Shown: positions 26,874-57,782 of the stretch, one piece after another | Layout: the number at the start of each line of letters is the position of its first letter | Position numbering within the stretch: the stretch's first letter is position 1 | IMG/VR virus record: IMGVR_UViG_3300020207_000022 | Location: 1,834-65,833 of that record | DNA: 64,000 nucleotides | Source of the DNA: a virus | Lineage: Duplodnaviria; Caudoviricetes | Reading direction: 5' to 3' (one strand) | Made by a program: the position numbers and the translations under genes | Notes under the pieces: model-generated | What the model was told of the DNA's origin: nothing | The model's database searches: none | The model's input: the letters and a program-made list of their open reading frames with translations, nothing else

Positions 26874-26881
26874 TATTTATA
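26874..26881 (-). promoter_or_regulatory. T4-type late promoter TATAAATA
   Basis: exact consensus 25 nt upstream of the ATG at 26849. Confidence 0.7.
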
Positions 26882-38950: not shown

Positions 38951-39394
38951 TTAATCTCCTAAATTAAGGTTCATTGTCTTTCTATTTATAAATTTGCGAA
39001 AATCTTTTTGATTACGTCTTTTGTATTTGTTTCTCGCTTTAGAACCAACGCCTGGTTCCCCCTGTGGTCCAACACCTATTCCTGCGATCCCACCACCCCC
39101 TGCAGAATTTGCAGGTTCTTCTGATAGTCGTCTCTTATGACGTTTATATCTAGGAAGCGACATCTCTTTTTCTACATCCATGACTGCTTCAACAAATTCG
39201 TTGACCATATTCATAGCATGTACATAATTATCGAAACTTCCCATCTTCAAAAACCTAGAAGCGGCAACATGATCCTTTTCGATTTTCTTTTTAAGAGTGT
39301 CAAGGTTCATGCGTCCGTAACCCTGAATAAGAACTTCAGGGTTGTCGTACTCTTTTTTAGTTTCTGGTTTTTTGAAGATAGTACCTTTTGCCAT
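38951..39394 (-). CDS. conserved late protein
   Basis: LSEEPANSAGGGGIAG...GEPGV motif. Confidence 0.7.
   Translation of the reverse strand: MAKGTIFKKPETKKEYDNPEVLIQGYGRMNLDTLKKKIEKDHVAASRFLKMGSFDNYVHAMNMVNEFVEAVMDVEKEMSLPRYKRHKRRLSEEPANSAGGGGIAGIGVGPQGEPGVGSKARNKYKRRNQKDFRKFINRKTMNLNLGD
38983..38990 (-). promoter_or_regulatory. T4-type late promoter TATAAATA
   Basis: exact consensus 35 nt upstream of the gp67-like start. Confidence 0.7.
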
Positions 39395-40394: not shown

Positions 40395-40712
40395 TTAGCT
40401 GTCTGCTACGATTGCGTCTTCGTCAACTGTATCACCTGTAATACCCAAGTCACCCGCATCACCCGAAGCAACTTTCATCACTACTAGTGGTTCTGCAATG
40501 TGACGTGTACGTCCATCTGCAGTGGTGTATGTGTGGTACAGGTTCCAGCCTGGCGTACCAAGACCTTTTGCTTTGTTTGACGCAAGTCCCGCTTCTGTCA
40601 AGTCAACGAACACTGCGTTGTCCTTGTCATGCGACTTGTTCGGGTTTGCCGCTGCTGTTTCTAGATACTTAGGTGCGTCCGCCAGTGTATCTGTCTTTCC
40701 CCATTGTGCCAT
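40395..40712 (-). CDS. conserved virion structural protein
   Basis: M..WG.TD, VFVD.TEA, GL.TPGW..Y.TYT, RH.AE.LV. Confidence 0.7.
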   Translation of the reverse strand: MAQWGKTDTLADAPKYLETAAANPNKSHDKDNAVFVDLTEAGLASNKAKGLGTPGWNLYHTYTTADGRTRHIAEPLVVMKVASGDAGDLGITGDTVDEDAIVADS

Positions 40713-42334
40713 TATTCTTCTCCTTGGTTTTCGAATTCTTTATCGACAATTTTTGAAATAAGTTCTGATTTTTCCATACTCTTTACTTTATCTATGTCAT
40801 CTTCTCCATAATGTTTTTGATAAAGTTTCATCAATTCCACTGGCGCTAATTGTTTAAGTTCATTATATCTATTCGCAACCTCATCAGACTTCTCTTCTGT
40901 CTTTGCAGATTCCGAAAGTCTCTTTGAAAGAGATTTCTTGAATTTTTCTTTGAAACTTGATTCTGTGAATACAACTTCATATGATGCAGATCCACCAGTC
41001 TTAGGATCTAACGCCATCATGCGTTCTTTACCTTTAGTGGTGTTCTTATAGTCCTTGTGTACCTTGCGAAAGTCCTTCTTAGAGATGTGGATCTTACCAC
41101 CTTTGATCTCATAGTTCTTCTTCTCTTGTACGTCTGAAGACTCTTTGATTTCATTTCCACAACAACTACACTTTTCACCAATTTCACTGGCATCGTGATT
41201 GCCCTTACAGTGTTCACAATCAGGACCACATCCGCATGAAGCTTCGTCTAGGTTTTCCTCAATTTCTTCTTTCGTGCCCTTCTTCTCCCAAGGTGCTTTT
41301 TTCAGAGTAACTTTTTCTTTACCCTTCTTGGAATAATTTGATACTTTTGCAAGTCTCGCTGCAAGTGCACCTTTTGCGTTTTCATCAAGTTCTTCTTCTA
41401 CTTCCTCACGTTTCATCAACTTCATTGCAACGTCTGCAAGTTTGGTGATCTTTAGACCATCCATCTTTTTCTTGTTTGCATCATTGACCTTGTCGTAGAT
41501 CTGTGAGATTGCAGATGCAGTGAACATGTCAACCATCACACCGTCAATCTTCATCGCTTGTTTTTTCGAAACGATTTCTTTGACTTTTGAGATAGTCGCT
41601 GACTCTTCGTCTAGTTCTACCGACTCTTTAACTTTTTTTTTAATTTTAAAGTTGTCTGCTTTTCTACGGATGTCTGAAAGTGAACTTTTCGAAGACGAAG
41701 GTTTTGCTTTTGCACGACCCTTTGGTGCCATGCCTGGCGCATGGAACTCTACCATTTCCGCATCAGGTTCGTAACTGTTATTCAATGCAGCACGGGCTTT
41801 TGCAAGACGATCCTGTGCTTTTTTAATGCGTTCACGATCCTTTTGTTTCTTCTCTGCTGAGGCTGCACGTTTCTCTGCAGCATCTGCACGACCAGAAGTA
41901 GAAAGTCTTTGACCGATTTTCTGTCCACCTTTGTAAAGTGCTTTAGCGGTTCCACCAACTGCTTTTCCAATACCCTTTGCAACTTTACCAATGAGTTCAT
42001 CTAGTTGTTCTTCAGTTAGATCATCAATGTCATATTCTTCCGCAATGATGTCACATGCTGCTTCAAGATCTTCGTTCGCAACCGCCTTAGAAACTGCTTT
42101 ACGTCTTTTGTGCAGATACTCATCAGAACTATCTACATCACCATCGTTGTCGATATCTTTATCTTTACGATCTTTGAACTTCTTTTTGACTGCTTTTGGA
42201 TCGACTTTATCCATACCTTCGCCGTCATCAGACTTATCGTTAGATGCGTCTTCGTCTTTAATAGATTTCTTCTCTTCCAATGTCTGTGCGACGAGACTGC
42301 CGAAAAGACTGTCGATTTTATCTTTGAAAGTCAT
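40712..42334 (-). CDS. modular K/E-rich internal-head-type protein (540 aa)
   Basis: DIDNDGDVD motif, Cys-rich module, modules bounded by QLDE/VELDE/EELDE/ENLDE; ATAAATA at 42373-42383. Confidence 0.7.
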   Translation of the reverse strand: MTFKDKIDSLFGSLVAQTLEEKKSIKDEDASNDKSDDGEGMDKVDPKAVKKKFKDRKDKDIDNDGDVDSSDEYLHKRRKAVSKAVANEDLEAACDIIAEEYDIDDLTEEQLDELIGKVAKGIGKAVGGTAKALYKGGQKIGQRLSTSGRADAAEKRAASAEKKQKDRERIKKAQDRLAKARAALNNSYEPDAEMVEFHAPGMAPKGRAKAKPSSSKSSLSDIRRKADNFKIKKKVKESVELDEESATISKVKEIVSKKQAMKIDGVMVDMFTASAISQIYDKVNDANKKKMDGLKITKLADVAMKLMKREEVEEELDENAKGALAARLAKVSNYSKKGKEKVTLKKAPWEKKGTKEEIEENLDEASCGCGPDCEHCKGNHDASEIGEKCSCCGNEIKESSDVQEKKNYEIKGGKIHISKKDFRKVHKDYKNTTKGKERMMALDPKTGGSASYEVVFTESSFKEKFKKSLSKRLSESAKTEEKSDEVANRYNELKQLAPVELMKLYQKHYGEDDIDKVKSMEKSELISKIVDKEFENQGEE

Positions 42335-42375
42335 TGTTCTTTCCTTAAGGTTATATTATTCTAATCCAATTGTAT

Positions 42376-42657
42376 TTATTTATGTTCTGTGATTTTTATT
42401 TCCAAATCATCGACGCCTTTTATAAGTCTATGATAGACATTCTTTTCAATGGTAAAGACCAAACCCCTTTTTAAAAGAAAAGGTAGACATCCTTCTATTT
42501 GGAAAGTCCAACCATTTCCTTCAACGATTTCGATGGTTCGATCATTTGCATCTCTGTGCCATACATAATCATCGCTAGAAACATCGAAGCTTCTGCAGAT
42601 GTACTCATTCCCCAGTTTGTCAGTATAAGGTTTACCACCAGTAATCTCCGCCACCAC
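42376..42657 (-). CDS. small cupin-like protein
   Basis: WHRD..DR.I...G.GW.FQ, YHRLIKG. Confidence 0.7.
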   Translation of the reverse strand: MVAEITGGKPYTDKLGNEYICRSFDVSSDDYVWHRDANDRTIEIVEGNGWTFQIEGCLPFLLKRGLVFTIEKNVYHRLIKGVDDLEIKITEHK

Positions 42658-43006
42658 TAAGTCCTAACTGTTTTGCATATTTCGGTAGACGACACGCCCA
42701 GTATCCTGGCGACATCTTATCTGTCTTAGTATCACAACTGTGTCGTGCAGCAAAAGATCTTGCAGCATCCCTGTCACCAATCTTAGATGTCAGTCCACCC
42801 TTTTCGTCACCAAAAGTAATCTTTCTTACATTCCCTGTCTTGGGATCTTTAACATAAACAACATACTTCTTACCGTCCCCACTATTTCTTTTGGGGGAGT
42901 TTAATTCTGGTTGTTCCGCTTCAATAAGAGGTTGTTCGAGAGGAACCGTATTACCCTCGTACAAACCAAACTTGGACTCGTGCGTATATTGTTTAAAACG
43001 TTTCAT
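42632..43006 (-). CDS. DUF6321-like protein with capsid-targeting-type N-terminus
   Basis: MKRFKQYTHE; KKY.VYVK..KI.FGD...SF.ARH.C...YWAC. Confidence 0.7.
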   Translation of the reverse strand: MKRFKQYTHESKFGLYEGNTVPLEQPLIEAEQPELNSPKRNSGDGKKYVVYVKDPKTGNVRKITFGDEKGGLTSKIGDRDAARSFAARHSCDTKTDKMSPGYWACRLPKYAKQLGLSGGGDYWW

Positions 43007-43248
43007 TTGTATGCCGTGCCAATTTTTGTATGTTTCTTTTCACCCGACTGTCTTTTCTGTGCTAGTTTCGTCAAGTTCTTAGTTTCTGCACCAGTAATTT
43101 CATCAGGCATAATATTTTCTAAATCGTCTACATCACCATCAACATCTTTATCGACTCCACGATCCTTAATAGCATGTTGAATAGACTTGTTGGGATCTAA
43201 AACATGCGGAATCTTTTTCTCTGAGATGTAGTGTTTAAAACGTTTCAT
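43003..43248 (-). CDS. small protein with capsid-targeting-type N-terminus
   Basis: MKRFKHYISE; DKDVDGDVD motif. Confidence 0.7.
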   Translation of the reverse strand: MKRFKHYISEKKIPHVLDPNKSIQHAIKDRGVDKDVDGDVDDLENIMPDEITGAETKNLTKLAQKRQSGEKKHTKIGTAYK

Positions 43249-43730
43249 TTTTTATTTTCCATCAACTTTACCGCTTTGTTATATGCGTCTTGATCAACGA
43301 CACCTTCTTTTAAAAGTCGTTCTCTATTAATCATATGTTGCGCTTGCACATCATCTTTTGATCCACCAAAGTAAGGAACACAATGTCCTTCTTCGATCAT
43401 AACCTCAGTGACTAGTCTACCGTCTGGTGTTCTGAAGTCACCTAGAATGCGTCCAAACTTACCACGCATATCTTCACCATTCTTTTCTTCAGTAGTGACC
43501 AACGTACCACCAGCAACCAACAATTCTTTTAGTCTTGCTTTCGCAGCTCTACCAAACAACTTCTCAACTTTATCAGAAGTTCTAGACTCTGGTGTATCAA
43601 TACCCATAATACGAACACGTTCGTCTTTCAACCACATACCAAAACCTAAATCAATATCTACGTCAACGGTATCCCCATCAACTGCTTTCAAGAGTCTAAC
43701 ATCATATTCATTGACTTTTAACTCTTTCAT
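43245..43730 (-). CDS. thermonuclease (SNase) family nuclease
   Basis: VDGDT, RIMGIDTPE, GKFGRIL; start MKELKV. Confidence 0.9.
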   Translation of the reverse strand: MKELKVNEYDVRLLKAVDGDTVDVDIDLGFGMWLKDERVRIMGIDTPESRTSDKVEKLFGRAAKARLKELLVAGGTLVTTEEKNGEDMRGKFGRILGDFRTPDGRLVTEVMIEEGHCVPYFGGSKDDVQAQHMINRERLLKEGVVDQDAYNKAVKLMENKK

Positions 43731-43888
43731 TTTTCTTTCTTCCACATTGTCCATACACCGTATGCGATTGCAATACCTGCACCAATTTTTGCAAGTGGTG
43801 CCATGAACAACACTAGTCCACCTAGTGCAACCAGACCCGCTCCATCCCAAGTGGTGCGTTCTTTTAGTCTACCTGTGATCCATTTCAT
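43727..43888 (-). CDS. small two-TM protein (53 aa, not in the ORF track)
   Basis: MKWITGRLKERTTWDGAGLVALG...; AGGAGA RBS. Confidence 0.7.
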   Translation of the reverse strand: MKWITGRLKERTTWDGAGLVALGGLVLFMAPLAKIGAGIAIAYGVWTMWKKEK

Positions 43889-43900
43889 GGGAATATCTCC

Positions 43901-46900
43901 TTATCTACGTCTACGAGATTTCAGGATACTTTCCCTAATACGTTGTGTGAACCTCTGTGGTGCACCTTCGCCTGGCGTTGCCTTCTTGAATGTATCCGTA
44001 GTCTCCTGTGTTCCATATTCAAGAGGTTTCTTAGACTCTTCAAGTTTCTTTGAGTCTTCCTCAGTAATTCCACGTTGTTGTTTCTGCGAGTCAATCCATT
44101 TCTTTGCAACAGGTGATTTCACTGGTTTCTTAACCCACGCAGACATTTTCTTATATGCGTTAGTTGAACCAGACTGCCAATCTGCACCATCAGAGTTGTC
44201 GACGATGATCATTCCAGTTCCAAAGAATTTCTGGAACTTACCAATGTTGTCCTGCACTGCATTCCACATCTTGGTGACTTCTTTTGCACCAAGTGTGCGA
44301 TCACGTTTTGCATCACGTGCAATCGCAGTTTCTAGGTTTGTGTTAACAAAGATCATTCCGACTTCGTAACCTATTTTCTTCAGCGCAATAGCCTGTTTCT
44401 CAATCTTTGCGTAGTCTTTACCTGTACCATCGATAACCAGACCCAGACGACCATTCAACGCAAGTTCCTGTTGTTTTGCAGTCAGTCGTTTTGCTTTCGC
44501 ACGTGCGTCCTGTCCTTTAGGTGTGAAGATGTCTTCTGGTGTCGCTTTTAGTCCTACCTTTTTCAACTGTGCTTCAAATGCAGGGTCAGAGTTGATCAGT
44601 TTCAGACCAAGTGTAGTCAATGCAGTCTTACCAACCATGAATGATTTACCACTGCCTGGACCACCTGCAAGGAACACTGCCTTGAAGATGCCTGGATCGT
44701 TTACACCTTCTTCTAGTTCAACTTCTTCCATCGTTGACTTTGTTTTTTGACTCATAGCTTTTTGAGTACGATTTCTTACTTTGTCTAACTTTTTTTCAAG
44801 GTGATCGTTGTCTTTACCAGTAAGTATAGCTTCGTTACGTTTCGACTTTTGGAACGATTTATAGTCTTTACGGCGATCTGCATCCTTCTGCATTAAAGAT
44901 AGGATTTTCTCACGTGGTTCTGTGTCCAGATCATCAACGAACTTCTTCAGTTGGTTGGTCTGACCTTTCTTCATCATCATTGCAGCCTTCATAAAGTCCA
45001 TCTTGTCGATGCCGCCATTCTTACGTGCATATGTTTCAAGTTCTTTTGCAGCACGTGACATGTTTTCGTCAAGTTCTTCTTTTTTCATACGCTTCTTCCA
45101 CATATAGTCTTTTACGACTTTGCGGATTTCGTCTGTGTTTGTTGTGCGCTTATTAGCAAACATAGTCATAATAACATCCATAGACTTACCATCGTCAACT
45201 GCTTTTTGAATTCCTTTGACATTGACTTTTTCTTCTAGTTCAACTGACTCATCCATAACTTTCATGATGTGTTTGTCCAGTTCACCGAACGCCTTCATCA
45301 TGTCCGATTCAGATGCACCCATCTTTTCAAGTTCTTTCTTCAACATATCCATCGCTGCGAAACGGTTCTTATCTTGGATACGTTCACTACGACCTTTACT
45401 TGTTTTAACGAAGAACTTGTGCGCTTTGTCGATTGCTTTCTTGTGTTTTGAATTCTCCTGTAGATCTTCCTCTACAAGTGATTCGAACTGCGCATCTAAA
45501 TCTGTTGACTCTTTATACATGTTTAACTCGTATCTTTTGTTATCTAGGTTTGCAACTTGAATATGAACCGCCTTTTTACCAGACTTATCTGTTAGACGAT
45601 ATGTGTTTGTTTTACCCTTGGAAGGTTTACGAGGACCAGTCGCAACTTTATTATCAATCTCTTCTGGATCAATCTCAATCTTCAATTTGTCTTTCGCATG
45701 TTTGTATGCATGTTGCATTGCAGACGAGAAGTCTTTGTGATATAGTTCGTAACCTGTTGACGATTTACCTTCGTTCATTTCTTCGTTCCTTACCTTCTTT
45801 GCAAGATCTTGGTCTGCGCCACCCCAAGTACCCTTAGACTTGGTGACAAATGAGTTAACACGTGCAAGTCCCCACTGTGTTGCGGTTGTGCCTGGTCTGT
45901 GACCAGTTCTCCACGCCGCAACTCCACGGTCAAACACTTTCTTCAGAATGCTCAAAGGCATCCCTGTCTTATCCGCTTTCTTTTTTAATGCTTCACCAGA
46001 ATCCTCAGTGATTGCATTCTCAGTAGATTCCATCAAATCAAAGACTTGCATCGATAAGTCTTCAACACTCTCTTTTAGTGGTTTCTCATCATCATGCAAC
46101 ATCTGTTTCTTTTTAAACATTTTGAAACGACCATCAAACTTGACCCCTGCGTTACCAGCTTTCAACATCATATGTGGTCTCTTGCGAATTCTCATATCCG
46201 CACGTGATGCTTCATCCATGTTAACGAATTCCTCATACTTGATGATCTTAGAAGTTGTTTTAAAATCAGGTTTTCTCATGATAGTCTTATTGACGAGTTC
46301 GATTTCGTCACCCTTTTGTTTGATTACTACTGGAAGGTTTAGATCCGACGAAAGATCCTTCAGTACCGCTTCAAGTCCTGCGTTACCTTGAATGTTCTTC
46401 GCCTTGTTCTTTTGGATCTTCTTGAATAGTTTCTGCAACTCTACGACCTTGATCTCAGGTGAGTTGCGTTTGTCGTTCATACGATCTTTGAAATGTTTTG
46501 TGAATTCAACATCGACTTTAAACTTCGCAAGAAGTCTATCTGCAAACTTTTCTAGATCGTCGATTTGTTTTTGAGACACTTCTTCTTGTACCATCTTGAC
46601 GAGATCTCTTCCACTGATATCTCTATATCCACGTGCAACTTGTGCAGCATAGTATCCGATGTCGTGTTTCGCATCTTTTTTCTTGCGGTTCCAAACCTTT
46701 TGCAGTGTGTCTGCAGCGTGTTTGATCATCTTCTCTTTGTTTGCTTCATCAATACGATTACCATCTTTGTCGTACTTACCAGACTTTTTCTTTGCGATTG
46801 CAATCGCCGCTTGTTGGGCGGGGGATACAGCTTCGTTCTTCTTCGCCATCTTTGTGATGGTTGCGTAATAGATGCGTTCGCCTTCCTCTTCACCGTATCG

Positions 46901-47230
46901 ATCAATGAAGTCTTTCTTGTCGATCTTCTTCTCGTACTCCTTCATCTTATCTTTTTCTGCAGGAGTCAGTGCACGTTCACCGTACATCTGTTTGAACTTG
47001 TTAGTATGTTTGGAAGGTTTTGTCTTCGCCTCTTTATCGCCAGGCGCAGGTTTATATGCACGAGGATCATCATCAGACATCTTCGCTTGTCGTGCAAACT
47101 GTTTTGCACGTTTTTCTTTTTCGTCTTTGTCTACACCTTTATAGTACTTAGAGGGTTGAGTGCCAGGCAACTCATCCACGTCTCTGTCCTGTGAGACTTT
47201 CATTTTCTCAACAAAGGTTCCGAATCGCAT
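43901..47230 (-). CDS. 1109-aa multi-module protein with DUF5824-like module and C-terminal zeta-toxin-like P-loop kinase
   Basis: RG.AAW.TGHRPG...QWG.ARVNSF; KAVFLAGGPGSGKS, INSD, IDGTG, R..KR.R, VDNS. Confidence 0.8.
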   Translation of the reverse strand: MRFGTFVEKMKVSQDRDVDELPGTQPSKYYKGVDKDEKEKRAKQFARQAKMSDDDPRAYKPAPGDKEAKTKPSKHTNKFKQMYGERALTPAEKDKMKEYEKKIDKKDFIDRYGEEEGERIYYATITKMAKKNEAVSPAQQAAIAIAKKKSGKYDKDGNRIDEANKEKMIKHAADTLQKVWNRKKKDAKHDIGYYAAQVARGYRDISGRDLVKMVQEEVSQKQIDDLEKFADRLLAKFKVDVEFTKHFKDRMNDKRNSPEIKVVELQKLFKKIQKNKAKNIQGNAGLEAVLKDLSSDLNLPVVIKQKGDEIELVNKTIMRKPDFKTTSKIIKYEEFVNMDEASRADMRIRKRPHMMLKAGNAGVKFDGRFKMFKKKQMLHDDEKPLKESVEDLSMQVFDLMESTENAITEDSGEALKKKADKTGMPLSILKKVFDRGVAAWRTGHRPGTTATQWGLARVNSFVTKSKGTWGGADQDLAKKVRNEEMNEGKSSTGYELYHKDFSSAMQHAYKHAKDKLKIEIDPEEIDNKVATGPRKPSKGKTNTYRLTDKSGKKAVHIQVANLDNKRYELNMYKESTDLDAQFESLVEEDLQENSKHKKAIDKAHKFFVKTSKGRSERIQDKNRFAAMDMLKKELEKMGASESDMMKAFGELDKHIMKVMDESVELEEKVNVKGIQKAVDDGKSMDVIMTMFANKRTTNTDEIRKVVKDYMWKKRMKKEELDENMSRAAKELETYARKNGGIDKMDFMKAAMMMKKGQTNQLKKFVDDLDTEPREKILSLMQKDADRRKDYKSFQKSKRNEAILTGKDNDHLEKKLDKVRNRTQKAMSQKTKSTMEEVELEEGVNDPGIFKAVFLAGGPGSGKSFMVGKTALTTLGLKLINSDPAFEAQLKKVGLKATPEDIFTPKGQDARAKAKRLTAKQQELALNGRLGLVIDGTGKDYAKIEKQAIALKKIGYEVGMIFVNTNLETAIARDAKRDRTLGAKEVTKMWNAVQDNIGKFQKFFGTGMIIVDNSDGADWQSGSTNAYKKMSAWVKKPVKSPVAKKWIDSQKQQRGITEEDSKKLEESKKPLEYGTQETTDTFKKATPGEGAPQRFTQRIRESILKSRRRR

Positions 47231-47231
47231 T

Positions 47232-48293
47232 TTACTTACCTTTAGGTTGGTCTGCTGGGCGTTTGTTTCTATTCTTCATACGATCCATCTCACGTTTCTT
47301 CACAGTAGGTAACATACGTTTAGAAATCGCATTGATGCGACTAGGTGAAATTTTGTCCAGTCTTTTATCTATAGCTTGTCTTTGTCCAAAAGACATATTC
47401 TTATAATCTTGTCCTTTGGTTAATTTTTTCTTAAGAAGATTTCTTGCACCTTTTCTCGCAAGTTTTCTCAACTTCTCTAAAGGTTTGCGTTTTCTGGCGG
47501 CCTTTTCTCTACCGATTTTAATTTTATGTTTAATTCTACGGAACCTTTGTTTGGCGGCCATACGTTGTTGTCTTGTCAACGCACGTTCTTCTAACTCTTC
47601 TTTAAGGTTCTTCTGAACAAGTTTCATCATCGCCATCTTATCTTTGTCAGACAACTTAGATGCAGCGGCACTTTTGAAACCATATTGTTTCTTACCTTTT
47701 TCATCTGTATAGTCGTCAAACTGTCCCTTCTGTGCAATGCCTCTTAACTTGGTTCCAGACATTCCTTCGACACCTTCTGCATCAGGATCACGTTCGCCTG
47801 CAGAGACAACCTTGATAGAATCGAAGTTGTAGTCTTTACCATTATACTTGTTGAGGATTGTTTGGAATTCTTTTACACGATCAGATCCAACCACCATGAT
47901 GATCTCGTCGTATCCAGATTTTTCGAGTTCTGCTGCGATCTGGAAGACTTGTCTTGCATTTGACTGTATAACAACATCGCCGAACGCCTTCTTTGCGAAT
48001 CGGAACTTGTCTTTGTAGCTGAGGGGATCTTTTTTGTTGTTCTGCGTGTGGGATAGGTATATACGTGCGTCTGCGTTATTGGACTTAGCAACTGATTTCA
48101 CCTTGTTTACTAGTTTCTCATGACCTATTGTTACAGGGTTCATGCGACCAAAAGAGAACACAACTGTCTTACTCTTTGCCTCTTTCAATTGAGGTTCAAG
48201 TTCCACGTATTGAGATGGGTCAAACTCTTTAAACTTGACCATTTCTCTTTTCTTTTTATTTTTATCTTTTTCTACTTCTGTAAGACTAGCCAT
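47232..48293 (-). CDS. HIGH-superfamily nucleotidyltransferase (T4-like 'cytidyltransferase') with basic C-terminal module
   Basis: FGRMNPVTIGH, VGSDR, MSGTKLR. Confidence 0.85.
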   Translation of the reverse strand: MASLTEVEKDKNKKKREMVKFKEFDPSQYVELEPQLKEAKSKTVVFSFGRMNPVTIGHEKLVNKVKSVAKSNNADARIYLSHTQNNKKDPLSYKDKFRFAKKAFGDVVIQSNARQVFQIAAELEKSGYDEIIMVVGSDRVKEFQTILNKYNGKDYNFDSIKVVSAGERDPDAEGVEGMSGTKLRGIAQKGQFDDYTDEKGKKQYGFKSAAASKLSDKDKMAMMKLVQKNLKEELEERALTRQQRMAAKQRFRRIKHKIKIGREKAARKRKPLEKLRKLARKGARNLLKKKLTKGQDYKNMSFGQRQAIDKRLDKISPSRINAISKRMLPTVKKREMDRMKNRNKRPADQPKGK

Positions 48294-48323
48294 GGTAATG
48301 CTCTAATTTATAGGATTAATGGT

Positions 48324-49049
48324 TTATTTATAATTTTCAGCGAACGAAGGGATGAATTCATAGTTTCTATATGCAGACCCACTCCAAATAGTTGACTTAC
48401 GTAACCACCCTATCGCTGGCGTAGGGTCTGCAATACAAAGAGGAACCTTTGTTCGTCTCTGGTTCATGATAAAATATGCATTATCTACACACCCAAGACG
48501 ACCTACAGTTTCGATCTCTTCAATCAAAGTTCTTGCAGTGTTTTTAGTCATTGCGTATGCATGTGCACCCTCATGACCAAGAATGTCTACAAACCTTACA
48601 GGTGGTCCTGCAGTCACGTGATCATATCTCTCAGGTTCGGGTAGTTTGTACCCCAAGACAACAATTCTATTCTCTGGTATATCTATATCTATACTTTGCA
48701 ACATAAGCGCATCGTGTTCAAGAACAATACCAACATCTTCTTCACCCTCTGCGATCTTTTTCCAAATTGCAGCGTGACCAACTGTGCAACATTCCGCTTT
48801 CTCACCCGCATGTAGATTCTCGTTGGGTTCAAACGGATAGTCTGCAGGCGGTAGTTGAATTGGTTTGCCTTCATTAATAGTTAGATTAATACCAGACTTT
48901 GCCCACGCAAGAACGCCAGGGATGTCGCACCAACCATCAAAGGTTTCCCACTTCAAACCAATTGCATCACAAGATGCCATTGCGTCTCGTGCATATTGTT
49001 CTGAGATTTCTTTATTGATTCTGAGTATGTAAGCTAGTTGTGTCTGCAT
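48324..49049 (-). CDS. GT25-like glycosyltransferase
   Basis: C..GH..IW, VLEHDA, GAHAY. Confidence 0.7.
   Translation of the reverse strand: MQTQLAYILRINKEISEQYARDAMASCDAIGLKWETFDGWCDIPGVLAWAKSGINLTINEGKPIQLPPADYPFEPNENLHAGEKAECCTVGHAAIWKKIAEGEEDVGIVLEHDALMLQSIDIDIPENRIVVLGYKLPEPERYDHVTAGPPVRFVDILGHEGAHAYAMTKNTARTLIEEIETVGRLGCVDNAYFIMNQRRTKVPLCIADPTPAIGWLRKSTIWSGSAYRNYEFIPSFAENYK
48325..48332 (-). promoter_or_regulatory. T4-type late promoter TATAAATA
   Basis: exact consensus 32 nt upstream of the nucleotidyltransferase start. Confidence 0.7.
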
Positions 49050-49761
49050 AATGTTTCTTCTTTATTGTCGTATAGAGGTTTAAATCTTTTTCAAAATAAT
49101 CTTTTATTGGTCCCAATGCTTCATAATCAAAGTGAATTTCTTTAGATGCATCTATTCTATCCACTCTATATTGATTTTTATGATTTTGCAGTTTATGTTT
49201 TATTGATAGATCATTGTCCTCTATAAAGGACTGTATATGATCCAAAAGGTTTTCATATAACCAATATTCACCACGAATCTTTCCATCATAAAGAAGGAAA
49301 TCAGACTGCAACAATTTAGAATTGTCTTCTCCTGTTGCTTTATCTGCATCGAACCATCCACGTGGAGCCATGTATTTGTACTCTGCCAAACTGTATGGTT
49401 TACTTTTCAGATCCTTATCCCAACGTTTAAAGAAGTAATAAAAACTCTTTTGTCTTTCGATAGGATCTCTAAGAACCGCTACGGAACGATATGTTCTGGC
49501 TTGTTCATCAGTGATAATGTCATACTCGACAAGTTGTTTTAAATTTAAATGGAGATGTTTGAAGGGGTGGTAGTTTTCGTGAGTTCCTCTAATCTCTGTG
49601 AGTTTTTCTTCAGAGAGAGTACCATCAATTTTAGCATCTTCCACTTCTGTGTATATTGCATCGGGATCATCTATATTACGAATAAAGAATTCCGATAGAC
49701 TGGTACTAGCAGTCTTCGGAACTCTGAGAAATATGAATTTATATTTTGGAGATATGTACAT
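49012..49761 (-). CDS. sulfotransferase family 2
   Basis: PAPS 5'-PSB motif PKTASTS, 3'-PB motif RDPIER..SFY, YENL, F..D. Confidence 0.85.
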   Translation of the reverse strand: MYISPKYKFIFLRVPKTASTSLSEFFIRNIDDPDAIYTEVEDAKIDGTLSEEKLTEIRGTHENYHPFKHLHLNLKQLVEYDIITDEQARTYRSVAVLRDPIERQKSFYYFFKRWDKDLKSKPYSLAEYKYMAPRGWFDADKATGEDNSKLLQSDFLLYDGKIRGEYWLYENLLDHIQSFIEDNDLSIKHKLQNHKNQYRVDRIDASKEIHFDYEALGPIKDYFEKDLNLYTTIKKKHYADTTSLHTQNQ

Positions 49762-49764
49762 CGA

Positions 49765-50415
49765 TCAAGTTGCAGTTGAGTACTGCTGTGTCCAAGGCAT
49801 CCCTGTTGACCCCCAATGATGTTCTGCATAGACCTTATCGTCGCCATCATAACGTTTAGATTCACGCACATAGAACTGAGGAATGAAATAATGTGAAGGG
49901 AAAATCTTCAAATGATACATGTTGTCCTGCACCAAACGACTTAGGAACTCGTTACCTGTCGATCTGAAAGGTTCTGGTGCGAGTTGATCTGCACGAAGTT
50001 GGTGTAGAGTTTCAACCAACATACGAACAAACATATTGCCTGGGTTACACGCAAGAATTGGTTGAACAAAATTTGCACGATACAATTCGTTCTCATAACA
50101 AGTATACGCTTTGTGCGGTTCAGAGATCCACAACTCATCGGTGTTTTCTAGACACTCCATATCAGCTTCTGGGAAAAACCCACCACGTTCAAGTAAGAGT
50201 TCGTATCGAATGAGATCAGAAACCCCACAATACTTCTTTGTATTATAATAGTGTTCAATGAGATGTTGATTCATCCACTTGCGTTGGTGCAACATTTCAT
50301 CTGTGAAAATCTCATACTCCCACTCTGGGTGTTTTTCTTTCCACGTATTCATCCATTTCATAGGCGCAGGATTGGGCCCAATCCAAATCTGTGTGATTTT
50401 CTTTTCGATATTCAT
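49765..50415 (-). CDS. GT32/OCH1-like glycosyltransferase
   Basis: I.K.I.QIW.G, SD..RY..L...GG...EAD, STG, HHW. Confidence 0.85.
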   Translation of the reverse strand: MNIEKKITQIWIGPNPAPMKWMNTWKEKHPEWEYEIFTDEMLHQRKWMNQHLIEHYYNTKKYCGVSDLIRYELLLERGGFFPEADMECLENTDELWISEPHKAYTCYENELYRANFVQPILACNPGNMFVRMLVETLHQLRADQLAPEPFRSTGNEFLSRLVQDNMYHLKIFPSHYFIPQFYVRESKRYDGDDKVYAEHHWGSTGMPWTQQYSTAT

Positions 50416-51110
50416 AACAGTTGCTCTCTTCTTAATAGTACCATATCTTTTGCGGGGTATCGACTACCCTCTGGTGTATCATCTATAGTATATAGAACTT
50501 CTTTTGGAAAGTTAAATGGTTCTTCGAATATATCTATCAATCTAAATTCACCACAATTCACATATATGTTTGAAGCACTTCTATGTAATATATTTTTATT
50601 CGTTGTCAAACAAATATAAGGTATTTCAGACCTCAAATAGTTTTCAATTATCTTCAAACATATATCATTGTGCAAGTGAAAGAATAGATCTCTACAGAAA
50701 AATAAATCTGCGTAAGGTAATTCGTCTTCTACAACATCCAACTCTAAAAATTTGTATTCTGGATATTTATCTTTATTGTCTTGTATCATTTCAGAAACAA
50801 TGTCGCCACCTGTATATTCAATTGGACATTCTTTCAGAACTTCTATCATCCAGTTCATATCTCCACATGGTGCATCCAACATACTGTTGATACCAAATTG
50901 ACTAAACATCAATGGCAGTTTTTCACGTAAGTTCTTTGTATACCCAAGTTCCGACCCTGGCCCACTACGTGATTCTTGATTGCGTCCTTCCATGCGCCAT
51001 GCAAAGTTTCTATAGACCCCATCAAATATCCAAGTACGATAATCTCGTGTGTTTTTTACTTCATCCGAAGCATGTTTTGGATACTTATGAGGATCTATTT
51101 CCTTTGTCAT
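50412..51110 (-). CDS. class I SAM methyltransferase
   Basis: SGPGS, LDAPCGD.NW, GxDIV, RD.FFHL. Confidence 0.8.
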   Translation of the reverse strand: MTKEIDPHKYPKHASDEVKNTRDYRTWIFDGVYRNFAWRMEGRNQESRSGPGSELGYTKNLREKLPLMFSQFGINSMLDAPCGDMNWMIEVLKECPIEYTGGDIVSEMIQDNKDKYPEYKFLELDVVEDELPYADLFFCRDLFFHLHNDICLKIIENYLRSEIPYICLTTNKNILHRSASNIYVNCGEFRLIDIFEEPFNFPKEVLYTIDDTPEGSRYPAKDMVLLRREQLL

Positions 51111-51673
51111 TTACTTTCTACCCACCAAACAAAGTCGTCTTCGACATTCCATGAGTTCTCACCATAATATTCTGTAACCGCTTGTTGAACGGTTGGAAAG
51201 TGTATATCGTGTCCCATCACGTATCCACCTTTACGAACTTTTGGAGCCCATGCTTTGATGTCACGCAAACAACCTTCGTATCCATGATCTGCGTCGATGA
51301 ATACAAAGTCGAGACTTCCATCTTCTACAGTCTCTGCGACTTCAGTTGTATATCCTTTGATGATTTGCGCACGATCAGGGTATTGCGCACAGAATTGCAA
51401 CATACGTTTGTAGTATGTTTCGTGGTCCCAAGGGTGACCATTCTCCCCTGCAGTCCATTTCTCTGGACCATTATTCTCTGGTTGGGGCGCATAAAGATCC
51501 ACCCCAATGATGTGAAGATTTTTACATGTGCGTACTAAGTGCGTAAAGGTTTGTCCCATCCATACGCCAAGTTCCGCACCTTTGGTCCAACCGTTTTGTC
51601 GGACCAATTTTTCGATTGTTAACCAACGCCAAGTGTTACCACCATCGTGTCCACGGTCACGTATCATTCCCAT
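51107..51673 (-). CDS. Methyltransf_24-type SAM methyltransferase
   Basis: GAELGVWxG, DFVFIDADH.Y, GG...GHD. Confidence 0.85.
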   Translation of the reverse strand: MGMIRDRGHDGGNTWRWLTIEKLVRQNGWTKGAELGVWMGQTFTHLVRTCKNLHIIGVDLYAPQPENNGPEKWTAGENGHPWDHETYYKRMLQFCAQYPDRAQIIKGYTTEVAETVEDGSLDFVFIDADHGYEGCLRDIKAWAPKVRKGGYVMGHDIHFPTVQQAVTEYYGENSWNVEDDFVWWVESK

Positions 51674-51706
51674 AACAAATTCTCCGTTATTAATCTTGTA
51701 TTTTAT

Positions 51707-52042
51707 TTATCTAATTGGTGTGAAATCTCTTCCAGCTATCACCATGCAACCCATTCCTGTAGATGGATCCATTATGATCAAACTATAACTTAGAGATTCT
51801 GGATTGATGGTTTGAATTACATCTCCATTTATCCATTGACCATTTTGTGCAAGTTGTAGTATACCCTTTGCAGTTGCAAATGGTATTTCACCGTATTTCG
51901 ATTGCACCAGACCTAGTATATTTTGTACATCCATGTCACACGCAAGTGCAACAGGCATTAGGACAGGTTGTTTTTCCGCTTGTGCGCTATTCGTTACTGC
52001 GAGGATAGACCCCAACAATAACGCTGCAAGTCTTCCCAACAT
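51707..52042 (-). CDS. secreted protein
   Basis: signal peptide ending AQA, two Cys. Confidence 0.7.
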   Translation of the reverse strand: MLGRLAALLLGSILAVTNSAQAEKQPVLMPVALACDMDVQNILGLVQSKYGEIPFATAKGILQLAQNGQWINGDVIQTINPESLSYSLIIMDPSTGMGCMVIAGRDFTPIR

Positions 52043-52063
52043 TCTTGTTCTCCGATTTTACAA

Positions 52064-52321
52064 TCATATAAAATTCATCCTTATGGTTAAAGAATCAAAC
52101 TCCTTTTCATTAACAATGCATCCGCCCCTAAAGATCATTCCATCCATAGAAGCAAATTCGAAATTTCCTGTTCTACTGTCTGCAGCTTCGTGTTCTGCAA
52201 TTTTATTTACAAAGTCTACACATTCTTGTCGACTTTCGAAAACCTTTTCGCTAACCTGTGGTCCCATTATGACAGTTGGATCATGTAACATCCACGTCCA
52301 GAAGACCAACCAAGCGTTCAT
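52064..52321 (-). CDS. hypothetical protein
   Basis: F.S..EC...C pattern. Confidence 0.6.
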   Translation of the reverse strand: MNAWLVFWTWMLHDPTVIMGPQVSEKVFESRQECVDFVNKIAEHEAADSRTGNFEFASMDGMIFRGGCIVNEKEFDSLTIRMNFI

Positions 52322-52695
52322 TATGAATACCCTGACACCTTGGTTAGTTTCAATAACACATGTCCTGGCCCGTCAAGCAACACTTGAATATTACGTTCTG
52401 AGTAAACATCATCTACAAATCCATTAAAATCATATGAACCTGCAGCAGTGAAATAATAATGCCCATGAACATCAGATCCGCCACGTTCTTTACGTGAAAC
52501 GTCGATTTGCTTATCTTTCTTTGCACCCCAAAATATTTCTGTGATAGTTACACTCGCAGTGTTCGCATCGAATGTTTCACCGTCCCCAACAAGGTTTGCG
52601 ATATCTAATTCGATTGTCTCTCCTGCAGACTCCGTTGTATAAATCTTTACGACTGCTTCGTTATGAGATCTTTTGAGATAGTGAATGTTCGCCAT
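52321..52695 (-). CDS. beta-rich hypothetical (possibly virion) protein
   Basis: coupled to both neighbours. Confidence 0.65.
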   Translation of the reverse strand: MANIHYLKRSHNEAVVKIYTTESAGETIELDIANLVGDGETFDANTASVTITEIFWGAKKDKQIDVSRKERGGSDVHGHYYFTAAGSYDFNGFVDDVYSERNIQVLLDGPGHVLLKLTKVSGYS

Positions 52696-53928
52696 TTATC
52701 GTTGCCACCCTTTGATATATTCCGAACTAAAGTTCGCTTTTGAGAACTGTAGTCTGTCTACCAATTTCAAAGAGTTTTTACCCAACCGATCCATCGCAAC
52801 GAATCCTTCAGGGTTTGTCACTTCGTAACCCGACTGAGTTTTGAGGAACGTTTTTAGACTGTCTACTTTATTAAGTTTGTCGATGATCATCATTTTCACA
52901 TCGACGAGAAGATTGTAAAGTTCAAACACTTTTTCAATCTCTTTAGTGTTCTTGTCACTGAACATTGTCAGTGCTTTTTCCATCTTGTCTGTCTGTGTTT
53001 TCTTACCACGATCAGTTTTCTTCTTGTCTGCTTCTTTCTGATAGTAGTCTTGAATGTACTTGACAAGACCCTTTACAAACGACTTAGGATTACCGATACG
53101 TTGTCCTTCACGGACTTTAGAGTTGATGAACGTGTTCACACGAAGGTTAAGTTCTTCATTGTTACCCAACTCATTTAGAATATCTTTCTTGACTGTTCTG
53201 AAGATCTTACCAGCCTCAGACAGTTTTTTAGTTACTGCTGCGGTTTCTTTCGCAGTCATCGTAACACTACCAGACTTGTCTTCGAACACCGCATCAACTG
53301 ACCAAACAGAACTTACTTCTTTGAGATTAGATGCAATCTTCTCTCCAAAACTTGCTGACATTCCTTCAAGCGTTGATCCTCTGTATACTGTATGCCAGAC
53401 CACACCGATCTTGGATCTTCGTATTTTCTTAGCGAGCCCACTCTTCGTTGGTATCGCATAAACAATCGTATTAGGATGGAAAGTAATATACGATTCTCCA
53501 TCAATAGTATCCGTTTTGAGATCATCTTTAGTATAGAGGAAATCACCTTGAATAACTCCTTCAATTCCGAGTTTCGAGAACTCGCTAAGCGCAACCTTGA
53601 ACTTGTTGTTCAGATCACCACTTATATCATTATCAATTTCTTCTGGTGTCTTATAGATTTTTGGATTCTTATTGAAAACACCTTTCTTCGCAATGAAGAA
53701 TTTTCCGTCACTTGGATCTACTCCTGCGAAAATTGCAGGTGCACCGTCCCACTTGACACTTAGGTTGACGGGCGCTTTTGCATTGCCGCCCAACATGTCA
53801 CGGATTGCACGAAAGTAGTTGATGACGTTACGTGTACCGTTAACACCCCCATCGATCACCGCATCTTCTGCGTGTGTCATGTGAAGGTTCTTTTCTTCTT
53901 TTAGTATGAACTGTTTAAAACGTTCCAT
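52696..53928 (-). CDS. DUF6267-like protein with polynucleotide-ligase-type motifs
   Basis: N-terminus MERFKQFILKEE; KWDG (motif I), QGD, EGFV (IV), KLV (V). Confidence 0.7.
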   Translation of the reverse strand: MERFKQFILKEEKNLHMTHAEDAVIDGGVNGTRNVINYFRAIRDMLGGNAKAPVNLSVKWDGAPAIFAGVDPSDGKFFIAKKGVFNKNPKIYKTPEEIDNDISGDLNNKFKVALSEFSKLGIEGVIQGDFLYTKDDLKTDTIDGESYITFHPNTIVYAIPTKSGLAKKIRRSKIGVVWHTVYRGSTLEGMSASFGEKIASNLKEVSSVWSVDAVFEDKSGSVTMTAKETAAVTKKLSEAGKIFRTVKKDILNELGNNEELNLRVNTFINSKVREGQRIGNPKSFVKGLVKYIQDYYQKEADKKKTDRGKKTQTDKMEKALTMFSDKNTKEIEKVFELYNLLVDVKMMIIDKLNKVDSLKTFLKTQSGYEVTNPEGFVAMDRLGKNSLKLVDRLQFSKANFSSEYIKGWQR

Positions 53929-54989
53929 TAGAATTTGATGTCCTTGTTGACTTTAATGTCTGGTTGAAGTCCAAAAAACTTCAATACATTCGACATCTTT
54001 CCACGAACATACTGAGTAGCTTTACTAATGTATCCACCAATTTTACCTTTGACTTTCTGCAACATACGTCTGAATGCATTTTCGTCTAGTTGTTCATTTT
54101 CTTCTTTGAGATTGGCATCCACGATAAGAGAAATCACAGACCAGAAGTTATACTCGCCTGTTTTCTTACCGCCTAGTTTACGTGAGGATGTTTTGAAACG
54201 TGCTTGTAGTTTCATCTGATCCGCAATCTGTTTGCAGTACGCATCGTCGTATACGGATTTAATTTTTGTTGCAGATCCACTATGATCTGATACAACCATA
54301 AACTCTGCAGCAGAATTACTACCTTCACCATATTTCATAAAACCAGACATTGCCTCACGTGCAAATTCAATTTTGAATTGTTCGTTTGTTTGAAATAGTA
54401 CACCCAGTTCATTCATAATAGTCTTGTGTGCAGCCTCACCTTGATTGACAAGAGGATTTTCACGAGACTTAATAAGAGGACGCAATTGTGATGGAGCAAG
54501 AGATGTAGTTACAAAATCCTCAAAAATCCCCACAACCTTTTTCAATTGTGGAGATTCTTCGATTTTAGATTTTTCCATCGCTGCGTGGAATGTTGCGACT
54601 GACTCTGCTTTACCGCCAGACATCAATTGTGCCATTCCGATTTTCAATGATAGACGTTTATCACCAATCAGAATGTCACACTTAGGTGTGGTGTCTGTCG
54701 CACCATAACTTTTCCAGAAACCAGTCAGTTTAGATTTTGCACGGCCGTATTGTTCTGCCTTGACATTATTACCCAACTTAAAATGGTCTTTAATGTCTTG
54801 TGCAATGCGTTTACCCGCTTCGATATATTCGGGGTTCTGTAGAAGTAGAGTATGCACCTTGTCACTAATACCTGCAGATGACGCATCGAAGGGTTGATTA
54901 GTAATTGCATACCAACCCATAACGATTGCAGCCTCGAAATCTTCTGCTTTGATTTTAGATTCCGTGATGTAAGATTTGTAAGATTTCAT
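53928..54989 (-). CDS. PD-(D/E)XK nuclease-like protein with capsid-targeting-type N-terminus
   Basis: start MKSYKSYITE; TPKCD....RLSLK; ATAAATA at 55022-55028. Confidence 0.5.
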   Translation of the reverse strand: MKSYKSYITESKIKAEDFEAAIVMGWYAITNQPFDASSAGISDKVHTLLLQNPEYIEAGKRIAQDIKDHFKLGNNVKAEQYGRAKSKLTGFWKSYGATDTTPKCDILIGDKRLSLKIGMAQLMSGGKAESVATFHAAMEKSKIEESPQLKKVVGIFEDFVTTSLAPSQLRPLIKSRENPLVNQGEAAHKTIMNELGVLFQTNEQFKIEFAREAMSGFMKYGEGSNSAAEFMVVSDHSGSATKIKSVYDDAYCKQIADQMKLQARFKTSSRKLGGKKTGEYNFWSVISLIVDANLKEENEQLDENAFRRMLQKVKGKIGGYISKATQYVRGKMSNVLKFFGLQPDIKVNKDIKF

Positions 54990-55027
54990 GTTCGAACTCA
55001 AATTATTTTGTGCTTTCGAACTATTTA

Positions 55028-57458: not shown

Positions 57459-57461
57459 AGT

Positions 57462-57776
57462 CTATTCCCCTTCTGCGATTACTCTCAACTTGTCTTTGTA
57501 ATTTTGGATTTTCTCTACACGATCAGGCCAGAAGATTGTACTCTTTTCTGGTGACTTACACAGATTGTCAAGAAATGGAACAACCGAATGAAACAGTTTT
57601 TCCAGCCTTGCTTCCAATGCAATCTTCTCATTCATGAGATCACTGAGTTGTCCTTCGAGATCTTCTGCAGCAGCTTGAGTAGCTACTGCAGTTTCTTTTA
57701 CTGCTTCAATTTCATCATCGATGAAACTAAAACCAAAGTCGAAATCGATTACATCTGTTGTCGATTTAGTACTCAT
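57462..57776 (-). CDS. conserved hypothetical protein
   Basis: FDFGF, P.L.NL...PEK..I.WP.R. Confidence 0.75.
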   Translation of the reverse strand: MSTKSTTDVIDFDFGFSFIDDEIEAVKETAVATQAAAEDLEGQLSDLMNEKIALEARLEKLFHSVVPFLDNLCKSPEKSTIFWPDRVEKIQNYKDKLRVIAEGE

Positions 57777-57782
57777 ACCGTC

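Follow-up and report, generated by a model that had tools for sequence, protein, structure and literature searches.

We examined a 64,000-nt stretch of viral DNA (positions 1,834 to 65,833 of IMG/VR record IMGVR_UViG_3300020207_000022; hereafter the window), and within it a 1109-aa open reading frame (ORF), designated P0001, at 43901..47230. P0001 and the ORF directly upstream of it are together a member of a very large beads-on-a-string family of marine T4-like myoviruses (pelagimyophage, Melnitz type), and it is well supported by their distribution that the modules of this family are autonomous and are exchanged at linkers. By analogy with phage T4, we tentatively read P0001 as an RNA-cleavage and end-processing protein, a fused analogue of the T4 RegB and polynucleotide kinase (PNK) pair, which we consider possible and approaching probable, both the activities and their coupling being predicted. 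A preliminary description of this DNA had read the same ORF as a polyprotein that is packaged in the prohead, cut there and injected.

The ORF announced at 43901..47230 proved real, with the difference that it lies on the minus strand (ATG at 47230, stop at 43901-43903); the plus-strand reading of the same interval is full of stops and holds no ORF. The protein is lysine-rich (K 16.1%, D 8.1%, E 7.8%), has no Cys and carries a net charge of +59. A Pfam scan placed DUF5824 (PF19141) at residues 416-475 (E 4.7e-18; 66 bits against a 25-bit cut-off for the profile, in two stretches), as anticipated in the preliminary description, and a P-loop kinase at 850-982, where Zeta_toxin (6.8e-07) and AAA_33 (1.4e-06) scored about equally. 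PHROG profiles matched an unnamed family at 218-331 and the C-terminal end of a 'cytidyltransferase' family at 398-481; an NCBIfam scan gave no match, and Pfam found no peptidase or virion domain in P0001 or in 31 scanned homologs. We modelled the full-length protein with AlphaFold2 (18 collinear alignment rows, mean pLDDT, the predicted local distance difference test, 56), cut it into ten segments (A, B, C, D, E, F, G1, G2, K and T) and mapped these on 264 retrieved homologs. The features are as follows, in the order in which they would be transcribed.

48325..48332, minus strand: TATAAATA, a T4-type late-promoter-like motif, 32 nt upstream of the ATG of the upstream ORF at 48293
47232..48293, minus strand: upstream ORF, 353 aa, cytidylyltransferase-like (HIGH-type nucleotidyltransferase) with a basic helical tail (phrog_3041, 8.2e-64)
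46976..47230, minus strand: module A, residues 1-85, conserved and predicted disordered (pLDDT 25-43), the N-terminal half of DUF5824, starting MRFGTFVE
46616..46945, minus strand: module B, residues 96-205, helical, pLDDT 62-82 except at 132-160, in 54 of 264 homologs
46223..46615, minus strand: module C, residues 206-336, RegB/RelE-fold endoribonuclease-like, with invariant FT.HF..R..D.RN and KT.MRK, in 131 of 264 homologs
46031..46222, minus strand: segment D, residues 337-400, a long basic and acidic low-confidence linker (pLDDT 26-46), in 30 of 264 homologs
45761..46030, minus strand: module E, residues 401-490, the helical C-terminal half of DUF5824 (pLDDT 89-97 in the model of homolog P0193), in 175 of 264 homologs
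45485..45760, minus strand: module F, residues 491-582, a helix and a three-stranded sheet, in 34 of 264 homologs
45455..45502, minus strand: canonical junction motif, residues 577-592, core FESLVEE, within the low-pLDDT segment 571-593 (net charge -7)
44726..45484, minus strand: modules G1 and G2, residues 583-835, helical and rare in the family (G1 in 13 and G2 in 19 of 264 homologs)
45229..45250, minus strand: direct DNA repeat copy 1, at the first VELEE junction, identical to copy 2 at 18 of 22 nt and spaced 522 nt from it
44707..44728, minus strand: direct DNA repeat copy 2, at the second VELEE junction and the start of the kinase
44051..44725, minus strand: module K, residues 836-1060, a P-loop kinase of the PNK/PSTK/zeta/AAA_33 group, in 217 of 264 homologs
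43904..44050, minus strand: tail T, residues 1061-1109, low-confidence, with a degenerate copy of the 'GT....[FY]KK.TPG[QE]' family tail motif, in 14 of 264 homologs

In the full-length model, stretches at pLDDT 60-85 are separated by 15 segments below 50, taken as long disordered linkers, that together cover 393 of the 1109 residues, the ordered stretches lying at about 90-130, 161-315, 410-463, 497-563, 594-660, 725-796 and 847-1051. Glu makes up 12.2% of the low-pLDDT segments and 5.4% of the rest, in agreement with the earlier proposal that the modules are joined by acidic linkers. Eleven of the 13 sites that had been listed fall in low-confidence segments, while RIDE and VQEE lie outside them. 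VELEE occurs twice (residues 663-667 and 837-841), and the direct repeat at these two places is the largest direct-repeat family of the ORF; its copies bracket module G2 and encode VELEE-(K/G)VN..GI.KAV junctions.

An exhaustive search returned 6340 representative clusters of P0001 homologs at E<=0.001, and another gave 1231 matches at the same threshold among 7995 scored candidates. Among the 264 mapped homologs we counted 73 different module orders, with the limit that this set was collected by similarity to P0001 and its members are related, so that counts drawn from it are not independent. The commonest orders were [nucleotidyltransferase]-E-A-E-K (27), [..]-A-E-K-C (22), K alone (18) and [..]-A-E-C-K (12). 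Modules C and K occur together in 104 of the 264 and are neighbours, in either order, in 80 of those 104. The same modules are also found as separate genes: in HTVC008M the kinase is a 220-aa gene of its own (gp129) next to a nucleotidyltransferase-A-E protein (gp130), and gp42 of Paraglaciecola GD virus 1 is module C alone (136 aa), among small early-type genes. The architecture of phiM12 gp159 runs from nucleotidyltransferase to C. The preliminary description had predicted that its modules would be exchangeable at the linkers and would turn up in shuffled order in other phages, and on both points the homologs bear it out.

DUF5824 profile positions 1-123 cover A and E contiguously in homolog P0119, and E, with or without D before it, directly follows A in 139 of the 175 homologs that have A; in P0001 the two halves are kept apart by modules B, C and D. 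A mini-module of about 28 residues with two Cys (DPCW.G[YF]KQVGMKK...VPNCV), absent from P0001, is present in 56 of 265 proteins (e.g. P0006, P0009-P0011, P0013, P0014, P0023) and in close homologs is inserted exactly at the VQE|E junction. Module F is nearly invariant across 17 collinear homologs. Among the 31 scanned homologs the fusion partners were HD_4 (1), NT5C (1) and CTP_transf_like (8). A further module, ...F[RK]ARH.C... (weak Pfam DUF5754/DUF5872), is fused in 33 of 265 proteins, for example at the C-termini of P0023 and P0131, and HTVC008M gp131 (L001:8435-8836) carries it as a separate gene adjoining the family genes. Helical matches of module E to sigma-factor region 2 reached a Z of about 5.5, below the level that is meaningful for helical bundles, and this candidate was rejected.

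Judged from their sequences, the upstream ORF and P0001 belong to one unit. The stop codon TAA of the former is followed by one base and then by the ATG of P0001 (47228-47234, minus strand), and most homologs have one continuous polypeptide in which the nucleotidyltransferase leads, by way of this basic helical tail, into module A. The acidic junction motif of the family marks the exact point of the split, which is retained in the closest clade (proteins starting MRF). We also considered that a programmed frameshift might link the ORFs and set this aside: TAA-A-ATG is conserved in the clade, with its MRF starts, and a slippery sequence is not evident. PF01467 scored 20.0 bits on the upstream ORF (E 8.4e-04), just below its 21-bit cut-off, and a PDB sequence search with this nucleotidyltransferase gave no match.

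The pairing with RegB begins with module C, whose FTKHF...KTIMRK stretch had been described as RNase-toxin-like. We modelled a shorter homolog, P0193 (part of A, then C and E; 288 aa), with 48 alignment rows, obtaining a mean pLDDT of 84 and values of 93-97 over C and most of E; module C has the RegB/RelE fold (a four-stranded antiparallel sheet with two helices packed on it, to which RegB adds an N-terminal helix). When the model was compared with 48161 chains by VIA-align, the top match was T4 RegB (2hx6; rmsd 4.4, 115 of 153 residues, the whole module covered) at Z 5.7, a value below the safe level and in a range that can arise by chance, and the next were eight RelE, HigB2, YafQ or ParE entries at Z 4.4-5.5. 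Foldseek against BFVD found a 140-aa 'Site-specific RNA endonuclease' of an Escherichia phage (E 6.5e-06, TM-score 0.56) and several 125-175-aa proteins of Vibrio, Aeromonas and Pectobacterium phages. A PDB sequence search with module C by itself gave nothing meaningful, and the ESM Atlas returned unnamed viral clusters only (0.86-0.87). An invariant His/Arg/Lys set is retained in the module, as is typical of active enzymes. These model-based comparisons are in line with the earlier RNase-toxin-like call and support a RegB/RelE-type endoribonuclease fold, from which we infer RNase activity. RegB itself uses His48 and His68 to leave 5'-OH and 2',3'-cyclic phosphate ends, and its fold is common to RelE and YoeB (PMC3014915). 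Both proteins are encoded by T4-like phages, are of the same fold class and have an [FY][ST].H[FL].DR stretch at the place of RegB His48. In contrast to RegB, a 153-aa protein made from an early promoter, module C lies within an 1109-aa chain behind a late-type promoter motif.

Module K would supply the second half of the pair. When a K profile built from 20 sequences was aligned by hhalign to T4 PseT, the probability was 92% (E 6.7e-07, 139 columns, PseT 3-148). Invariant in all 20 sequences are GGPGSGKS, the Asp of INSD, which falls on PseT Asp35, the catalytic base, and three Arg that correspond to the LID arginines. Together these features support, on sequence grounds, a hydroxyl-directed P-loop kinase of the PNK/PSTK/zeta group, and in T4 PNK is functionally paired with RegB. 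The domain had been described as a zeta-like P-loop kinase, of which the P-loop kinase stands, at 850-982, and the zeta specificity does not: Zeta_toxin (PF06414) exceeds its cut-off (29.4 bits against 22.3) but so does AAA_33 (29.1 against 27), and the scores of PNK, PSTK and adenylate kinase equal or exceed those of zeta. The structural matches include PDB zeta 1gvn; unlike in zeta systems, however, Pfam and PHROG scans of the neighbouring ORFs showed no epsilon-type antitoxin, the flanks being a nucleotidyltransferase and an SNase-type nuclease, and nothing points to a UDP-N-acetylglucosamine substrate.

In the scheme that we favour, the modules would act independently on RNA. Module C would cut mRNA and leave 5'-OH ends, module K would phosphorylate the ends so made, and host RNases dependent on 5'-monophosphate would then complete mRNA decay, much as in T4, where PNK phosphorylates RegB-made 5'-OH ends and thereby feeds decay by RNase E/G (PMC3014915). 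The order of the modules would be free because they work independently, and recombination at the short conserved junction sequences would shuffle, insert, delete, fuse and split them. The HD, NT5C and nucleotidyltransferase partners found in the family fit nucleic-acid-end or nucleotide chemistry. If a fusion of a RegB-like RNase and a PNK-like kinase is what P0001 represents, it would be a 'Rosetta stone' for the T4 PNK/RegB mRNA-decay result and would extend it to marine phages.

Several observations weigh against this reading, beginning with the relatedness of the homologs mentioned above. The link to RegB is one of fold only. An hhalign comparison of a 7-sequence C profile with T4 RegB was not significant (probability 0.25%, 12 columns), its sole aligned stretch placing the invariant F-T-x-H-F-x-D-R of C on RegB 42-53, which contains His48; Pfam REGB_T4 (PF10715) had no match in P0001 (E<=1) or in contigs G000, G001 and HTVC008M (E<=0.1); and Foldseek with the P0193 model found no PDB entry at E<=0.001, HigB2, RelE and ParE being among the compact weak matches. 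Seven diverse C sequences share one invariant His, against two catalytic His in RegB. Nor is K uniquely PNK-like. A PDB search with its profile ranked PSTK (2.1e-04), adenylate kinase (1.5e-03) and zeta (4e-03) ahead of T4 PNK (0.063), a search with a single K sequence gave adenylate kinase as the best match (E 0.013), and Foldseek with the low-confidence full-length model returned generic P-loop kinases only, with shikimate, zeta (1gvn), adenylate, thymidylate and polynucleotide kinases all at about 1e-04. The residue aligned to PseT Arg38, which binds the 3' phosphate of the substrate, is a nearly invariant Phe. T4 PNK also has a HAD 3'-phosphatase, a domain that Pfam did not find in P0001 (PGP_phosphatase at E 0.14 only). 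Within P0001 itself C and K stand about 500 residues apart, and a late-promoter motif fits poorly with RegB, an early function in T4 (PMC3014915).

The model of the preliminary description is compatible with RNA processing and would add a delivery route. A late-made chain, with its upstream partner, would be targeted to the prohead core by peptides of the capsid-targeting type, cut after junction Glu by a gp21-type protease and injected in pieces, comprising an RNase, a kinase, a nucleotidyltransferase and basic DUF5824 peptides. It rests on short motifs and on a promoter motif, and we regard it as doubtful. That hydrophobic-x-Glu sites exceed what the Glu content would give holds in one respect and fails in another. 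Over the whole of P0001 the counts are explained by composition ([IL]xE, 12 against 9.1 +/- 2.8 expected; [ILVMFYW]xE, 27 against 22.9 +/- 4.0; a fraction of 0.19 of 2000 shuffles reached the observed value in each case). Within the low-pLDDT linkers, which were defined from the structure model independently of the motif, there were 19 sites against 10.5 +/- 2.7 (P=0.003, 5000 within-linker shuffles), although the linkers are poorer in hydrophobic residues; a hydrophobic residue stands at P3 before 20 of 48 linker Glu and 7 of 39 Glu of the ordered parts (Fisher P=0.02).

Across the family, the junction motif [LIVM][DN]E.F[ED]..(hydrophobic).E was counted 117 times, in 92 of 265 proteins, where shuffles gave 0.25, an excess that is qualitative since the sequences are related; it is found ahead of K, E, G1, C and A alike. 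Its cores (E-L-F-S-E, E-Q-F-A-E, E-M-L-I-E) are of the same kind as the T4 propeptides, IPII and IPIII starting MKTYQEFIAE and Alt MELITELFDE in the T4 record. Among 262 Met-starting homologs, 25 have F..(hydrophobic).[ED] within their first 18 residues, against a background of 3.0% (P=5.5e-07, for related sequences). The start of P0001, MRFGTFVE, is a shortened acidic junction motif, and both it and the upstream ORF, which begins MASLTE, fit an N-terminal peptide of about 6-10 residues ending in hydrophobic-x-Glu, a short match of low information. A Peptidase_S77 protease is encoded in related phages, in whose major capsid proteins F-L-G-E or A-L-M-E immediately precedes the conserved N-terminal region of the mature protein; by analogy with T4, we presume that cleavage there follows this Leu-x-Glu.

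A number of findings speak against packaging. P0001 has only one canonical internal junction motif, at 582. In the largest subfamily the most conserved Leu-x-Glu, that ahead of the kinase, reads Leu-Gln-Ala. Many members start directly with an enzyme fold and have no N-terminal peptide, e.g. MSKTVFAFGRMNP, and AT-rich starts of MK.F type may be common in phages of this kind for other reasons. The solitary module C of GD virus 1 lies among small early-type genes. A virion proteome of phiM12 exists (PMC4621102); its homolog gp159 is annotated 'hypothetical', while gp157, two genes upstream, is a 'virion structural protein'.

A second tail-like sequence, GAGE.GT..L..YKKDTPG[QE], occurs in 76 of 265 proteins (P0029-P0244) and in HTVC008M gp128 (L001:5474-5986). 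Often it forms the very C-terminus, and 13 proteins end no more than 6 residues after it; of its internal copies, 35 of 63 are followed by the acidic junction motif within 16 residues.

The 'late operon' of the preliminary description held up in part. The neighbours of P0001 in Pfam and PHROG scans are UvsX, a DnaB-type helicase, DUF6267, two methyltransferases, glycosyltransferases and a sulfotransferase, together with the 353-aa cytidylyltransferase-like ORF and the SNase-type nuclease, and farther off primase, thymidylate synthase and ribonucleotide reductase; they are replication and nucleotide genes and not structural ones. On the other side stands TATAAATA, which resembles the T4 late-promoter consensus, 32 nt upstream of the abutting upstream gene. 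Exact copies in the window number five (857-864 on the plus strand; 19233-19240, 26874-26881, 38983-38990 and 48325-48332 on the minus strand), a total at chance level (3.3 expected). For three of the four minus-strand copies, however, an ORF of at least 70 aa has its ATG 25-35 nt downstream, as is the case for 5.7% of background positions, and the plus-strand copy has such an ATG 41 nt downstream. Because this placement exceeds chance although the total count does not, a T4-type late promoter driving the two-gene unit of the upstream ORF and P0001 is plausible, and the copies are likely to be T4-type late promoters scattered through an otherwise early-looking region. Their positions argue that the motif is functional in the phage, a point for packaging, as is the consideration that a late-made RNase would be easier to explain if it were sequestered. 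A relaxed late motif, ATAAATA, was not enriched (18 against 14.4 expected), and a sigma-70 promoter scan of 42000-58000 was uninformative (36 found, 36.9 expected). One copy of the motif precedes a 72-aa ORF adjoining an Rz-like spanin gene.

Known packaged proteins resemble P0001 in part. In T4 the internal proteins are basic, propeptides of 7-65 residues are cut off, IPIII needs no more than its first 10 residues for targeting, and capsid-targeting sequences have been proposed as a general route of protein packing (PMC9026906). P0001 shares with the internal proteins and Alt, which are targeted to the capsid, cut by gp21 and injected, a basic composition, a late-type promoter motif, an N-terminal peptide ending in hydrophobic-x-Glu and a place outside the head cluster, as has alt, which encodes a packaged enzyme and adjoins a replication gene, DNA ligase. 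The T4 proteins differ in being single-domain proteins that lose one or two terminal propeptides, whereas P0001 would need about ten modules to be separated internally. In giant phages many head proteins are cut after Glu, and the phiKZ-like ejection or inner-body proteins are cut at several sites by a gp21-related protease (PMC9026906); unlike P0001, these are proven virion proteins of a different phage group and do not have its enzyme set.

The closest concept is that of the polyvalent proteins of phages and conjugative elements, in which many disparate enzymatic domains share a polypeptide of variable architecture, with early injection and sometimes processing proposed (PMC5512222). P0001 likewise has several disparate domains in variable architecture. 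It differs in that the class is defined by MuF, relaxase, Alt-type ADP-ribosyltransferase, ArdC and N4 virion RNA polymerase contexts and by zincin-type peptidases (PMC5512222), while P0001 adjoins replication and nucleotide genes and shows neither linkage to packaging or virion genes nor a peptidase domain. A word search of the accessible text of PMC5512222 found no cytidylyltransferase or Pelagibacter phage and zeta once, and on the strength of that text the P0001 family is outside its coverage.

A wider version, in which the junction cassettes would be capsid-targeting peptides, gp21-type sites and recombination hot spots in one, with the cut enzymes injected and host mRNA shut down from time zero, we consider unlikely. 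Should the junctions serve for targeting or for cutting by the prohead protease, this would be the first instance of an enzyme polyprotein delivered via a T4-type head, and it would provide a natural set of packaging tags.

The junction motif would fit a clamp-binding tail as well as a protease or capsid-targeting site, or it may be neither. The DNA polymerase of HTVC008M ends in ...S-N-L-E-D-F-F, a pattern (hydrophobic-acidic-acidic-hydrophobic-aromatic) also seen in the junction cores F-E-E-M-F and F-E-L-F, and in T4-type polymerases the clamp-binding tail is located at the C-terminus. P0001 might then be a replisome-tethered scaffold, its junctions docking to the sliding clamp or another replication hub and holding nucleotide and nucleic-acid-end enzymes (kinase, nucleotidyltransferase, nuclease) at forks. 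The gene does lie between helicase/UvsX and primase/ribonucleotide reductase, the motifs sit in disordered segments as docking peptides do, and the fusion partners are nucleotide enzymes, but the resemblance is a 5-residue pattern, a late-promoter motif is unexpected for a replication factor, and RegB/RelE-fold domains act on RNA at ribosomes and not on DNA (PMC3014915), so that we find this improbable.

We give similarly little credence to RNA repair, in which the kinase and nucleotidyltransferase, perhaps with the DUF6267 protein, would heal tRNA or mRNA ends left by host anticodon nucleases, in the manner of T4 PNK and RNA ligase 1, module C then serving for binding or being an inactive relative: K can be aligned to the kinase domain of T4 PNK, an enzyme whose classical role is tRNA repair (PMC3014915), and HD and HAD-type phosphoesterases occur in some homologs, but a ligase fold was not identified, DUF6267 has no assigned function, and the invariant His/Arg/Lys set of C is typical of an active enzyme. 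PHROG 455 (phrog_455; 764 positions), a further point for repair, joins a DUF6267 domain to a cytidylyltransferase-like domain, and the synteny of DUF6267 and the nucleotidyltransferase is kept in HTVC008M and Melnitz. Because this family fuses both, the two domains, fused in some phages, probably work together.

Whichever reading is taken, an unusually free architecture combined with conserved junction peptides sets P0001 apart among the known kinds (RegB, PNK and multi-domain phage proteins). With its 6340 clusters the family occurs in some of the most abundant ocean phages and is essentially undescribed, and its extreme shuffling at conserved junction peptides makes it a clean natural system for module exchange in phage proteins. 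DUF5824 was absent from a full-text literature search, and word searches of the accessible text of PMC7029224 (pelagimyophage) and PMC9004378 (Melnitz) found no discussion of cytidylyltransferase, polyprotein or internal proteins; an adenylate kinase, 'adk', is mentioned for pelagimyophage groups A and B (PMC7029224), and this may be the kinase of the P0001 family.

The window derives from a marine T4-like myovirus that is close to Pelagibacter phage HTVC008M and Methylophilales phage Melnitz (Kyanoviridae), with which it shares the gene order UvsX, helicase, unknown, DUF6267, ..., cytidyltransferase. A nucleotide search of the phage collection returned only 6 records at 4-15% cover and a protein search 18 records, none of which reached 80% cover. 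The P0001 protein, identical or in the 90% cluster, is on 6 contigs. The source record, a 65.8-kb fragment that is 36% complete, contains no head genes, prohead protease gene or clamp gene. In four salt-marsh metatranscriptome runs, contigs of 151-403 nt with 0-1 mismatches are scattered over 43901-48300, which covers P0001 and the upstream ORF; they indicate that near-identical phages are present in this habitat's RNA libraries, and speak to presence only, not to transcription, timing or ends.

Elsewhere in the window, five minus-strand ORFs at 48324-51673, between the DUF6267 cluster and the nucleotidyltransferase, encode a GT25-like protein, a sulfotransferase, a DXD glycosyltransferase and two methyltransferases. 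HTVC008M and Melnitz have different small genes at the matching site, and the interval looks like an inserted glycan-modification island. The DUF6267 protein (410 aa, E 8e-107) is encoded at 52696-53928 on the minus strand. The sole clearly structural-looking gene is a 1703-aa ORF at 13237-18348 (minus strand) with a weak tail-fibre PHROG match (1.3e-20 over residues 839-979). At 40395-42334 (minus strand), about 1.5 kb downstream of P0001, a 540-aa ORF that has unnamed PHROG matches only and no Pfam match is directly followed by one of 105 aa that matches a PHROG labelled 'head protein' (6.5e-20). Finally, adjacent 540-aa and 288-aa ORFs at 61456-63938 (minus strand) both match a Nol-like carbamoyltransferase PHROG and may represent a duplication or a split gene.

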